A stretch of 34,355 bases of DNA from a virus (UHGV-2160239), one strand, 5' to 3'; counted from the first letter of the stretch, positions 31,256-34,355 are shown. The notes: generated from the letters alone by a model not told the origin. Numbers and translations are program-made.

Positions 31256-31412
31256 AGCTTCAGCCCCTTGTATCCGTTAAATGATTCGGCAACAATCATC
31301 ACCCACCACGCGCGTAATCTCACCCCTGCGCCGTTCTCCCGACCCAGCGACAACAAAAAGCAGTAACCCCCTCCGCACGCACATGCGACCATGCCGCACA
31401 GGGAGGGAACAG

Positions 31413-32522
31413 ATGACCGACACCACCATGCAATTGCTCAGTCAGGGCACAGACCCCGTGAAAATGCCGGATTTTGATATTCTTGCGGAGGGTAAAACGC
31501 TGTCAGGCGTGGCAGAGCGCCTGATGAGCCTGTCACTGACCGACAACCGGGGATTTGAGGCGGACCAGCTCACCATCACGCTGGATGATGCGGATGGTCA
31601 GTTGCAGCTACCGCCACGGGGCGCGCGCCTGACGGTTCTCATTGGCTGGAAAGGAGAACCGCTGACAGAAAAAGGCACTTACATTGTTGATGAAATCGCT
31701 CACGAAGGACCGCCGGACAGGCTGACAGTTTCAGCCAGAAGCGCAGATTTTCGGGATGAATTTAACGTTAAACGTGAGGTGTCCTGGCATGATGTGACCG
31801 TTGAGCGTGTGGTATCCGCCATCGCTCATCGGTATGGTCTGAAACCGCAAATCAGCGAAATGCTGATGGATATTGAAATCGACCACGCCGACCAGACCGA
31901 AGAAAGCGACATGTCCTTCCTTACGCGCATGGCGGAAATGCTGGGCGCAATCACTACGGTAAAAAGCGGTAATCTGTTATTCATCATGCCAGGCGGTGGC
32001 GTGAACGCGCAGGGCCAGCCGTTGCCCTCGTTCGCCATCACACGCAGCAGCGGCGATCGCCATCAGTTCCGCATTGCTGACCGAGAGGCGTATACGGGGG
32101 TACGCGCTTACTGGCTTGATCTTAATTACGGGAAAAAGAAAAAAGTCAGCGTGAAACGCCGCAAACCGACAAAACCCAAAAAGGAGAAAAGCAGCAGCCG
32201 TGAAGGTGATTATATGGAAGGCGCGGAAGGCAATGTGTTTGTGTTACGCAAGACTTATCAGAACGAGCAGGCAGCAAGACGCGCAGCGGCGGCAAAGTGG
32301 CAGCAGCTACAACGCGGAGCCGCATCATTCTCCATCACGCTGGCGCGTGGACGCGCAGAACTCTATCCCGAAATGCATGGCACGGTAGCAGGCTTTAAAA
32401 GCGATATTGATAATCAGGACTGGATTATTGCAAAAGCCGAGCACACCATTGATAACAGCGGCTTTACCACGCAGCTTGAGCTTGAAGCAAAAATCCCGGA
32501 ATGGATAGCAGAAACAGAGTGA
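31413..32522 (+). CDS. D: Tail / late control protein D (P2 gpD-like)
   Basis: 369 aa from ATG 31413 (GGGAGGG RBS); size and position next to ogr as P2 D; on the strand opposite to FI-U here. Confidence 0.8.
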   Translation: MTDTTMQLLSQGTDPVKMPDFDILAEGKTLSGVAERLMSLSLTDNRGFEADQLTITLDDADGQLQLPPRGARLTVLIGWKGEPLTEKGTYIVDEIAHEGPPDRLTVSARSADFRDEFNVKREVSWHDVTVERVVSAIAHRYGLKPQISEMLMDIEIDHADQTEESDMSFLTRMAEMLGAITTVKSGNLLFIMPGGGVNAQGQPLPSFAITRSSGDRHQFRIADREAYTGVRAYWLDLNYGKKKKVSVKRRKPTKPKKEKSSSREGDYMEGAEGNVFVLRKTYQNEQAARRAAAAKWQQLQRGAASFSITLARGRAELYPEMHGTVAGFKSDIDNQDWIIAKAEHTIDNSGFTTQLELEAKIPEWIAETE

Positions 32523-32564
32523 GCAACTTAGAATAGCGGCAACACCACGTTAAGGGAGGTCGCT

Positions 32565-32825
32565 ATGTTCCGTTGTCCGCTTTGTGGCGCATCTGCCCGT
32601 ATCCGCACCAGTCGTTCGGAAAATGATTCAAACACCGTACGGAAAAAATATTACCAGTGTAACAACCTGGAATGCGGCATAAGTTTCTCAACACTGGAAG
32701 CTTTCCATAAATTCACATCGAAACACGCCCCCGGCGTTCACTCTTCAGAAGGTATCCCGTGGAATGAGCTGCCAGCTTCGCACAGGGGAAACAATCAGAT
32801 GAGCTTGCCTTTACCTCAGAATTAA
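32565..32825 (+). CDS. ogr: Late gene transcriptional activator, Ogr/Delta zinc-finger family
   Basis: 86 aa; MFRCPLCGASARIRTSR ... YYQCNNLECGISF gives the Cys4 zinc finger of Ogr; strong GGGAGG RBS. Confidence 0.85.
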   Translation: MFRCPLCGASARIRTSRSENDSNTVRKKYYQCNNLECGISFSTLEAFHKFTSKHAPGVHSSEGIPWNELPASHRGNNQMSLPLPQN

Positions 32826-32913
32826 CAGGCAGAATTGCCGGAGTAACAAAAAAGCGATAGATTACGCGCGGGTGCCTTTCGGCTGATGGTCGGAGGGAGT
32901 ACCCGAAGGCCAG

Positions 32914-33099
32914 ATGTGGAAAGGCCCCGAGTCAACTTTAATGTTAACCCGAGGCCCTAACCATCTACCCTTAGCAAGTGATAGGTTAGCGCCTCCCCGA
33001 AAAAGGAGCAAGCGCTATGTCGCAAAAATCGCTTACGGTCATCACGTTCTGCGTGACGGCAATCCTCATCATCTGGATGCTGCACGGTTCGCTGTGTGA
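32914..33099 (+). CDS. mok: mok-like overlapping reading frame of the hok locus
   Basis: 61-aa ORF in a different frame overlapping most of the hok coding sequence, as in hok/mok/sok loci; may only be a translational-coupling frame. Confidence 0.35.
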   Translation: MWKGPESTLMLTRGPNHLPLASDRLAPPRKRSKRYVAKIAYGHHVLRDGNPHHLDAARFAV

Positions 33100-33157
33100 A
33101 ATACGGATGAGCTTCTGGGGAGCGGAGTTTGCGGCGTTCTTACAGTGTAAGCAGTAA
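33017..33157 (+). CDS. hok: Hok/Gef-family type I toxin (46 aa)
   Basis: MSQKSLTVITFCVTAILIIWMLHGSLCEIRMSFWGAEFAAFLQCKQ: N-terminal TM helix plus the SLCEIR and E.AAF Hok/Gef signature; AGGAG RBS; 5-prime GGTGCCTTTCG and 3-prime CGAAACGGCACC are complementary, like hok mRNA tac/fbi elements. Confidence 0.7.
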   Translation: MSQKSLTVITFCVTAILIIWMLHGSLCEIRMSFWGAEFAAFLQCKQ

Positions 33158-33243
33158 GGAAACCGCGACGGGGGAGTAATCCCCCGTCAATCGGTTGCTA
33201 AGGTCGGTCGAAACGGCACCCTATCTCACAGACATGAACAACA

Positions 33244-33276
33244 AACCCGCAGCGTAAAAACTGCGGGTTTTCTTTT
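33244..33276 (+). terminator. Rho-independent terminator downstream of hok
   Basis: ACCCGCAG-CGTAAAAA-CTGCGGGT stem-loop followed by TTTTCTTTTT. Confidence 0.6.
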
Positions 33277-33406
33277 TGCTACCCTCACAAATGAGGGCAC
33301 CATACATAAGCAATAGACATAACAGATCGATGCAATAAATCCGATCGATAAAAACGATCGATTTGTTATCATATCGGCAGCAGTAACCACACAAGAGGTG
33401 CCGCAA

Positions 33407-33604
33407 ATGACGCAAAATGTACGATGCAAAAATTGCAACAAACTACTTGCCCGCGCCTCATTTCACTACATTGAAATAAAATGTCCGCGCTGCAAAACAC
33501 TTAACCAGATAACGAGAGCCATTGAGCACCCCACACGCATGAGGAGTTATGACCGTGGGGATCGCAACCCAGCATCAACCAGTACATACACCGGAACACA
33601 CTAA
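33407..33604 (+). CDS. com: Com-like zinc-finger translational regulator (Mu Com family)
   Basis: 65 aa; RCKNCNKLLARASFHYIEIKCPRCKTLNQ is closely similar to Mu Com (CKNCNKLL ... IEIRCPRCK); 3-prime end overlaps the start of the methyltransferase gene as com overlaps mom in Mu. Confidence 0.75.
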   Translation: MTQNVRCKNCNKLLARASFHYIEIKCPRCKTLNQITRAIEHPTRMRSYDRGDRNPASTSTYTGTH

Positions 33605-34355
33605 GATTTACCAGATTGACAATGCCACGCTCTGTTGTGGAAATGCACTGGAAATATTGCCGCTGATTGAGCCAGAAAGCATTGATGCCTTAATCACTGA
33701 CCCGCCTTACAGTTCGGGGGCGACACACAAGGCCGGACGCACCAACCAGGGCAGTCATGCAAAATATCTGAACGGCGAGAACCTTCACCGCTTTGATGGG
33801 TTCGCGGGTGAGAACATGGACGCCCGTTCGTGGGCTTACTGGACACAATTATGGATGGCACAGGCACTACGTGCAGTCAGGTCGGGCGGTTATGCCCTGG
33901 TATTTACTGACTGGCGACAACTGCCTGCTTTAACCGATGCGTTTCAGGCCAGCGGTTTTACATGGCGTGGAATCATTGCGTGGAACAAAGGAAAGGGGTC
34001 ACGAACACCCCATACGGGGTATTTCCGGCATCAGTGCGAATACATTGTCTGGGGCAGCAAAGGCCATTTAGGTAAATCGCCTTCGGGGCCGTTCGACGGC
34101 TGCATGACGTTCCCGGTTATCCCGTCAAAGAAAATGCACCCGACCGGAAAACCAGAAGAACTAATGGCGGAGCTGGTCAGGACTGCGAATAGTGGCGGAA
34201 CAGTCCTTGATCCTTTTATGGGGTCGGGAACAACGGGTGTGGCTGCACTGAAAGCAGGGCGAAAATTTATTGGTATAGAAACCAGTGATCATTATTTTGA
34301 GGTAGCAGCGCAGCGGCTTCGGGGGAGTATTACCACAACCATTTCGACGACATAA
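33549..34355 (+). CDS. DNA methyltransferase, beta-class N6-adenine (or N4-cytosine) type, no restriction partner in window
   Basis: 268 aa; motif IV DPPY near the N-terminus and AdoMet motif I FMGSGTTGVAA near the C-terminus (beta-class order, CcrM/M.RsrI-like); stop is at the window end. Start at 33549 or GTG 33555. Confidence 0.85.
   Translation: MTVGIATQHQPVHTPEHTKIYQIDNATLCCGNALEILPLIEPESIDALITDPPYSSGATHKAGRTNQGSHAKYLNGENLHRFDGFAGENMDARSWAYWTQLWMAQALRAVRSGGYALVFTDWRQLPALTDAFQASGFTWRGIIAWNKGKGSRTPHTGYFRHQCEYIVWGSKGHLGKSPSGPFDGCMTFPVIPSKKMHPTGKPEELMAELVRTANSGGTVLDPFMGSGTTGVAALKAGRKFIGIETSDHYFEVAAQRLRGSITTTISTT

Follow-up and report, generated by a model that had tools for sequence, protein, structure and literature searches.

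The window analysed here is a 34,355-nucleotide (nt) stretch of viral DNA (UHGV-2160239), and near its right end lies a short gene for a peptide of the Hok/Gef family. We conclude, with a probability of about 85%, that this gene is the toxin of a hok/Sok-type type I toxin-antitoxin cassette and that a P88-like (P2-family) prophage carries it at its right end as an accessory gene. A preliminary description of the window had proposed a hok/mok/sok-like locus adjacent to the late regulator ogr, and its core call, a type I toxin-antitoxin locus of the hok/sok type beside ogr, is upheld by the Pfam match, the Rfam alignment, the pairing of the tac and fbi elements of the messenger RNA (mRNA) and covariation among relatives.

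The 46-codon open reading frame (ORF) translates as MSQKSLTVITFCVTAILIIWMLHGSLCEIRMSFWGAEFAAFLQCKQ and matches the Pfam HOK_GEF profile (PF01848) at 29.6 bits against a gathering cut-off of 22, with peptide residues 8-44 aligned to profile positions 6-42 of 42. The traits of the Hok family found in it are the length of 46 amino acids (aa), LTVITFCVTAILIIWML, the SLCEIR motif and a cysteine at position 44. SLCEIR, proposed beforehand as a check on the assignment, is identical to the motif in Hok of plasmid R1, and the Hok/Gef signature attributed to the gene from its sequence is thus confirmed. C27 and C44, the two cysteines important for Hok toxicity, occupy the positions known from the family, are invariant among 29 relatives and are both hard-coded as TGT (33095-33097 and 33146-33148). 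In HokB-E the corresponding pattern involves tyrosine codons that need editing by TadA, whereas hard-coded cysteines are the pattern of HokA (bioRxiv 10.1101/2025.08.07.668861); the Hok of the window follows the HokA pattern and requires no RNA editing. Proteins that carry the annotation 'Hok/Gef family protein' share 98% identity with the peptide, and the median dN/dS across the clade, including members without the upstream ATG discussed below, is 0.17, which indicates that the Hok peptide is under purifying selection. The constructs whose toxicity was assayed in a 2026 preprint include 72_1621, which differs from the window peptide at V8A alone; 42 of 45 constructs were toxic, and the three that are named as non-toxic do not include 72_1621 (bioRxiv 10.1101/2025.08.07.668861).

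Relatives of the locus were drawn from a genome contig scan (7 loci), exact-protein look-ups and IMG/VR, and 37 transcripts with a pairwise difference of at least 1.5% were used for the RNA alignment. Similarity among the 37 loci extends from the -10 box and GGGTGCC 5′ end to just past a near-invariant GGCACCC, beyond which the terminators differ; these limits are taken as the bounds of a self-contained cassette. At the hok promoter site, a TANNNT -10 element (TAGATT, TAGAAT or TAAATT) is retained in related loci. The leader gives a full-length match to Rfam family RF01794 on the plus strand (32870-33030, from model position 1, E = 1e-7) with the consensus in the hok-leader sense, and by this alignment the locus is classed as a divergent member of the family. 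The unit 32870-33277 has a minimum-energy fold of -176.7 kcal/mol (z = -7.5), and none of 100 shuffled sequences folds equally well. The strings GGTGCCTTTCG (32871-32881) and CGAAACGGCACC (33209-33220), which had been read as evidence for complementarity between the leader and the 3′ region, were both located in this fold as parts of a 17-bp helix that joins the tac-like 5′ element to the fbi-like element (32870-32886 with 33204-33221) and contains five pairs with compensatory changes. Folding of the full transcript, the check suggested for long-range pairing, thus recovers the tac-fbi helix. A second long-range helix between the leader and the 3′ region has 13 pairs, six of which are changed on both sides.

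When the 3′ end is cut to the post-stop hairpin, tac (32870-32883) is predicted to re-pair with the ucb-like element. In this tac-ucb helix 95.9% of cells are paired (slid partners, at most 63%), covariation scores 0.139 (slid partners, at most 0.046) and four pairs are changed on both sides. Three of these four compensatory pairs (alignment columns 35, 36 and 38) also covary with fbi; coupled covariation of this kind is a signature of the hok mRNA family according to Gultyaev et al. (1997), as far as that study is reported in a source that cites it. The hairpin that sequesters the Shine-Dalgarno (SD) sequence of hok (helices 6 and 7 of the fold) is 94-99% paired over the 37 loci, with one-sided changes only. 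The terminator, described earlier as clean, is indeed a hairpin followed by a U-rich tail, and six of its pairs show two-sided changes. For the entire window fold on the 37-locus alignment, 91.6% of cells are paired and 35 of 135 pairs are changed on both sides; the structure behind these counts came from the window's own sequence, a choice that inflates the proportion of paired cells and not the two-sided counts. The whole-fold covariation is 0.151 compared with at most 0.046 for slid partners, and none of 500 shuffles reaches the observed value. A nascent 5′ hairpin is also predicted (32870-32884 with 32888-32904) and is 92.6% paired across loci; it has almost no two-sided changes and does not exceed the shuffles, and covariation gives it no support. 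The fold follows the logic of the R1 hok mRNA family. By analogy, the post-stop hairpin is likely to be the 3′ end of the processed, active mRNA and, on the R1 model, would be a barrier to 3′ trimming.

A conserved putative promoter, a minus-strand hairpin and the projection of a known antitoxin all point to a Sok-like antisense RNA on the minus strand from about 32975 to 32915. It is predicted to consist of a variable 5′ tail of about 18 nt (32976-32959), a hairpin (32958-32921) and a tail beginning UUUCC. The antisense RNA had been expected at around 32850-32930, a location that is not borne out, the overlap with the predicted RNA being confined to its tail. The predicted sok promoter overlaps the SD sequence of hok, and its -10 element reads TAACCT in 36 of the 37 loci and TATCCT, the -10 of R1 Sok, in the remaining one; the -35 element reads TTTACT in some Salmonella copies. 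The promoter aligns with the AGGTTAGC block of hokW, which is the site of the primers used for a sokW promoter-less mutant (PMC8621323). Through an alignment of the leaders, the sokW annotated for phage 933W in GenBank corresponds to 32920-32975 of the window, and experiments have shown that sokW acts as an antitoxin and that a promoter mutant loses this activity (PMC8621323). For the Sok hairpin of the window the predicted energy is -25.6 kcal/mol in the minus-strand RNA and -12.9 kcal/mol in its plus-strand counterpart; each of the 17 distinct variants is more stable as the minus strand (means -21.3 and -13.6 kcal/mol), since the G-U pairs of the hairpin turn into A-C mismatches on the plus strand. 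The fold of the 81-nt minus strand has z = -7.5. On 3′ truncation of the hok mRNA, the predicted unpaired probability of the Sok-target region (32960-32976) rises from 0.23 to 0.50, as it does in 35 of the 37 loci, which fits the R1 rule that Sok binds processed mRNA only.

The setting of the cassette is that of a prophage end. Over its final 22 kb the window shares about 95% identity with Escherichia phages Chuche, 500465-2 and P88 (genus Xuanwuvirus, family Peduoviridae), which identifies it, from its sequence, as a P88-like (Xuanwuvirus) prophage. The hok cassette is placed between ogr and a com/DNA-methyltransferase pair. Upstream lie the baseplate/tail gene gpD, with an ORF that ends at 32522, and ogr (32565-32825), whose adjacency had been claimed beforehand and which is recognized by a Pfam Ogr_Delta match of 57.8 bits; the hok unit begins 45 nt 3′ of the ogr stop codon. 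Downstream are genes for a zinc ribbon of the Com type (33398-33604) and for an N6/N4 DNA methyltransferase (33549-34355). The cassette is assigned to the end of the prophage because the host gene flk comes after the methyltransferase in an E. coli chromosome with the identical arrangement. Of 5426 complete E. coli genomes, 1637 have a match to a 475-nt region containing the locus at a coverage of 80% or more, and the PGAP label on the ORF there is 'Hok/Gef family protein'; 198 phage records have a match to the region as well. The order gpD-ogr-hok recurs in phage P88 and in P2-like prophages of E. coli and Salmonella. The cassette is also present outside P2-like prophages, beside lom in Shiga toxin (Stx) phages and near host genes in Klebsiella oxytoca, and its function therefore cannot depend on ogr.

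Table 1. Predicted and observed features of the hok locus, in window coordinates.
Feature	Position	Strand	Remarks
Predicted hok promoter	32835-32863	+	-35 TTGCCG (32835-32840), 17-nt spacer, -10 TAGATT (32858-32863)
hok mRNA unit, ~405 nt	32870-33277	+	Conserved GGGTGCC 5′ end to post-terminator U-run
tac-like 5′ element	32870-32886	+	Pairs with fbi in full-length RNA and with 32916-32928 after 3′ removal
Upstream ORF overlapping hok ('mok' of the preliminary description), 61 codons	32914-33099	+	Open in the window
ucb-like element	32916-32928	+	Alternative tac partner in 3′-truncated RNA (fold of 32870-33192)
Second long-range helix, 5′ arm	32969-32982	+	Partner 33190-33203; covers complement of Sok 5′ tail
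SD-sequestering local hairpin	32987-33017	+	SD AAGGAG 33003-33008, anti-SD CUCC 32993-32996, GCGC/GCGC base beside AUG
hok coding sequence	33017-33157	+	46 aa and stop; Pfam PF01848; median dN/dS 0.17
Post-stop hairpin	33167-33188	+	GACGGGGGA-GUAA-UCCCCCGUC; 9 pairs, 5 two-sided changes, 99.1% paired
3′ fold-back region	33190-33221	+	33190-33203 pairs with 32969-32982; fbi-like element 33204-33221 pairs with tac
Intrinsic terminator of hok mRNA	33243-33277	+	Hairpin 33243-33270, 10 bp, 6 G-C, tail TCTTTTT
Predicted sok promoter	33011-32983	-	-35 TTGCTC (33011-33006), 17-nt spacer, -10 TAACCT (32988-32983)
Predicted Sok-like antisense RNA, ~56-62 nt	~32976-32915	-	Ends uncertain by a few nt

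Among known systems, the paradigm is hok/sok (parB) of R1. In addition to the shared SLCEIR motif, the two Hok peptides are 37% identical over 35 aa, and the R1 mRNA, of about 400 nt, likewise has a 5′ tac that pairs with a 3′ fbi just before the terminator and an alternative tac-ucb pairing. The antisense promoters occupy aligned places (TATCCT in R1, TAACCT in the window), and the antisense hairpins are similar (GCCUCG...CGGGGC). Unlike R1, the window lacks a start codon at the mok site, and its overlapping leader ORF is not conserved; it also differs in a peptide of 46 rather than 52 aa, in an fbi located about 22 nt before the terminator, and in residing in a prophage rather than a plasmid. 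The closest named Hok is HokA, the toxin of the E. coli chromosomal hokA/sokA locus, with 43% identity to the K-12 protein and the best-scoring NCBIfam model; the SLCEIR and AAF motifs are common to the window Hok, R1 Hok and HokA. Since K-12 hokA/sokA is disrupted by IS150, only the K-12 HokA protein was used for comparison. The window Hok scores 35.2 bits against the HokA equivalog NF007290, far under its cut-off of 89, and for this reason it is regarded as belonging to a separate cluster, HokA-like but not HokA.

A third comparison is with hokW-sokW of Stx phages 933W and Sp5, in which the toxin, the antitoxin and the sok promoter have been tested experimentally (PMC8621323). It too is phage-borne and its leader can be aligned with that of the window, but HokW is a Gef-like protein of 51 aa that is 29% identical to the window Hok, and a mokW is annotated. 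The RefSeq label 'MokW-like host killing' suggested that the locus might itself be hokW, an identification that was rejected because the primers given in PMC8621323 and the 933W record put the 51-aa hokW elsewhere in the phage. Stx phages hold two unrelated hok loci, namely hokW/mokW/sokW and a separate 46-aa relative of the window hok beside lom, as seen in Shigella phage 75/02 Stx (L003, 1670-1810) and phage 933W (L101, 753-1027). The label 'MokW-like' on the lom-adjacent gene is misleading, the product being Hok and not Mok. The nearest relatives of the window gene are found in Hok 'cluster 72' of Escalera-Maurer et al. (72_1621 and 72_1589), of which 72_1621 is the single-residue variant mentioned above, and in gp52 of phage P88 (YP_009113095), whose locus is 94% identical in DNA and shares the gpD-ogr-hok order. 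In these sources, however, the coding sequence alone is described, and the Sok RNA, the mRNA fold and the status of mok are neither annotated nor analysed.

We propose the following course of events, in which the structural steps are supported by covariation while the kinetics, the part played by RNase III and the toxicity are carried over from the known family, in particular R1, and from a preprint. The weak hok promoter would yield a stable mRNA of about 405 nt whose 5′ end folds on itself during synthesis. In the finished mRNA, tac would be clamped to fbi, the second long-range helix would hide the region recognized by Sok, and the local hairpin would hide the ribosome-binding site of hok, so that the full-length mRNA would be neither translated nor bound by Sok. 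Slow 3′ trimming to the post-stop hairpin would then strip fbi, allow the 5′ end to re-pair with the ucb-like element and expose the Sok target. As long as the prophage is present and transcribed, the short, unstable minus-strand antisense RNA would pair with the activated mRNA and the duplex would be destroyed, by RNase III in known systems. Should the supply of Sok be halted, through loss of the element, shut-off of host transcription by an infecting phage or changes during induction, the 46-aa Hok would be made and inserted into the inner membrane, and the cell would be killed or lysed. The main role is most likely the selfish retention of the prophage end, and the cassette may, as a side effect, influence lysis or superinfecting phages. 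Prophage stabilization and abortive infection, the roles suggested in the preliminary description, are plausible by analogy with known systems. Late read-through into hok is also possible, as a scan found no other plus-strand terminator in 32500-33242, which makes the hok terminator the first one 3′ of gpD and ogr.

Several observations weigh against the assignment to a working hok/Sok cassette. The RF01794 match scores 42.1 bits, under the gathering threshold of 59, and the high pairing percentages are inflated as stated above. A consensus promoter scan flagged neither the hok nor the sok promoter, both being weak matches to the consensus (just 6 of 12 positions for sok), so that the two promoter calls are made from conservation and homology alone; moreover, the invariance of AGGTTAGCGCC could stem from a constraint on the hok mRNA and not from a promoter. 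The chromosomal hok loci of E. coli are reported, in a later summary, not to mediate post-segregational killing. Finally, the hok SD sequence is predicted to be closed in both forms of the RNA, with unpaired probabilities of 0.02 in the full-length and 0.07 in the truncated molecule, and the start of translation without a mok-type leader ORF is unexplained. Activation independent of mok, by an opening of the SD sequence on 3′ truncation, was considered and rejected on these predicted values.

The last point bears directly on the status of mok. The overlapping frame that had been taken to mimic mok is present in the window, where its ATG at 32914 is preceded by GAAGG and the frame passes through the SD hairpin into hok, but it is not conserved as a mok would be. 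The comparison took in 52 distinct leaders (106 copies), of which 43 retain the ATG and nine have none at that site; the frame is open across the hok start in only eight, and in 35 a stop codon lies 27-78 nt before the hok ATG. These 35 include the nearest relatives, namely P88 and a Salmonella copy of 94% identity, in which the stop is 42 nt upstream. An open random frame of 34 codons is expected with a chance of about 0.2, and 8 of 43 is at this level. The site aligned with the mok start of R1 and hokW reads ATC-TAC-CCT-TAG in the window and offers no start codon. Because the frame is rarely open in relatives and no start is found at the aligned site, 32914-33099 is not considered a conserved mok, and by sequence comparison an overlapping mok frame does not appear to be a conserved part of the mechanism in this Hok clade. 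It is accordingly doubtful that the locus is a canonical three-gene hok/mok/sok system, in which the frame would be a working mok, its translation through the SD hairpin would be needed for Hok and Sok would act by blocking it. Such an arrangement would account for the closed SD sequence, for which an incoming ribosome is the natural opener, and in R1 translation of mok is required, and matters, only as far as the hok SD sequence (PMC9841398). The retention of the ATG and the predicted coverage of this ATG by the 3′ tail of Sok also agree with it, as does the open frame of the window itself. It has to be set against this that members from Salmonella, Klebsiella and Citrobacter lack the ATG and yet have Hok under purifying selection, that the ATG is upstream of the Sok hairpin and not at the aligned site, and that the initiation region opens modestly on truncation (0.29 to 0.42).

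The lack of a conserved leader ORF and the permanently closed SD sequence could also be read as signs of an inactive or decaying hok relic, with RNA features that persist by descent and a toxin never made in relevant amounts, as has been proposed for E. coli K-12 loci. Damage to some relatives (a Salmonella copy without the tac 5′ end, the split K-12 hokA) and the failure of chromosomal loci in post-segregational killing in earlier work point the same way. We nevertheless judge a relic to be very unlikely, as the promoter, tac, ucb, SD sequence, ORF, both cysteines, fbi and terminator are all intact in the window, the compensatory changes in five helices and the dN/dS indicate ongoing selection on RNA and peptide, the locus is found in 1637 of the 5426 E. 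coli genomes, and the near-identical peptide was assayed for toxicity and not named as non-toxic. Another reading keeps the same machinery and gives it a different main role, that of a lysis or release helper switched on at induction, for example by gpD-ogr read-through that outnumbers Sok. The precedent is hokW-sokW of Stx phage Sp5, which speeds lysis and doubles phage release after mitomycin C, with sokW vanishing on induction (PMC8621323). The short distance from the ogr stop, the lack of a predicted terminator before that of hok and the post-ogr position kept in P2-like prophages of Escherichia and Salmonella are in keeping with this role. It is unlikely as the main one, however, given that HokW is a different, Gef-like Hok, that read-through is deduced solely from an absent predicted terminator and that the cassette also occurs beside lom and near host genes, independently of ogr. 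Quite unlikely is a further reading in which cluster 72, the 46-aa Hok clade, is a mok-independent branch of hok/sok; because its ribosome-binding site is predicted to be closed in full-length and processed mRNA alike, activation would require a trigger unlike that of R1, possibly ribosomes or transcripts arriving from the late operon gpD-ogr in lytic growth. If true, Hok would be a built-in lysis helper of P2-like phages and Sok would act only via duplex-dependent decay. A hok/Sok cassette that mainly serves retention of the prophage end is preferred to these alternatives.

The element belongs to a known kind. Annotations of it exist in P88 and in RefSeq genomes, where the gene appears as 'Hok/Gef family protein' in thousands of cases, its cluster has been assayed, and hok has been reported to be over-represented in prophages and to form tandem islets of 2-6 copies (bioRxiv 10.1101/2025.08.07.668861); as a member of an already catalogued class, the locus is ordinary. 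A literature search on hok with P2-like or ogr returned no relevant paper. The present analysis makes small additions, one of which is a map, with coordinates, of the RNA parts of this Hok cluster that had no annotation (Sok, tac, ucb and fbi). Another is comparative evidence against a conserved overlapping mok in the cluster, which touches on a question left open in a recent survey, where the mapping of Mok and Sok across Hok diversity is stated to remain to be done (bioRxiv 10.1101/2025.08.07.668861). A third is the demonstration that the RefSeq label 'MokW-like' is misleading. For prophage annotation, the locus can be entered as an accessory cassette of the addiction or defence type at the ogr end.

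Variants of the cassette were seen in Salmonella enterica. In one case (loci L015, L016 and L017), a P2-like prophage carries three tandem hok cassettes after ogr with a period of 498 nt and hok ATG codons at 1505, 2003 and 2501. Each of these has its own leader, and the complement of the Sok 5′ tail differs from copy to copy, as if the antitoxins were private. In L012-L014 (2349-2500), a hok copy follows lambdoid tail-fibre genes and retains the hok ORF, the Sok region and fbi, with the tac 5′ end and the promoter swapped for unrelated sequence; this cassette is probably disabled. Near-identical enterobacterial hok loci are also present in assemblies labelled Planococcaceae bacterium UBA3378, Vagococcus sp. 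WN89Y and Xanthomonas pisi DSM 18956 (L004, L006 and L008), which are likely to reflect contamination by enterobacterial or prophage DNA. In L025, L027, L031 and about 40 further IMG/VR loci, the prophage contigs stop exactly 3 nt past the hok stop codon; these records lack the hok 3′ untranslated region, with fbi and the terminator, evidently because the predicted prophage was trimmed at its last called gene.

Two observations concern the neighbouring genes. The longest ORF of the gpD-like gene (31281-32522) encodes 413 aa and has an N-terminal extension rich in proline, serine, threonine and arginine; since called relatives measure 365-380 aa, the true start is probably internal. Upstream of the com/methyltransferase pair, the interval 33313-33372 contains three GATCGAT motifs, and an inverted repeat, ATAACAGATCGAT / ATCGATTTGTTAT (33319-33331 and 33357-33369), flanks a promoter-like site at 33345-33372. 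The interval looks like a Dam-site-rich operator ahead of a Com-regulated DNA methyltransferase, an arrangement which we take to resemble the control region of Mu mom.

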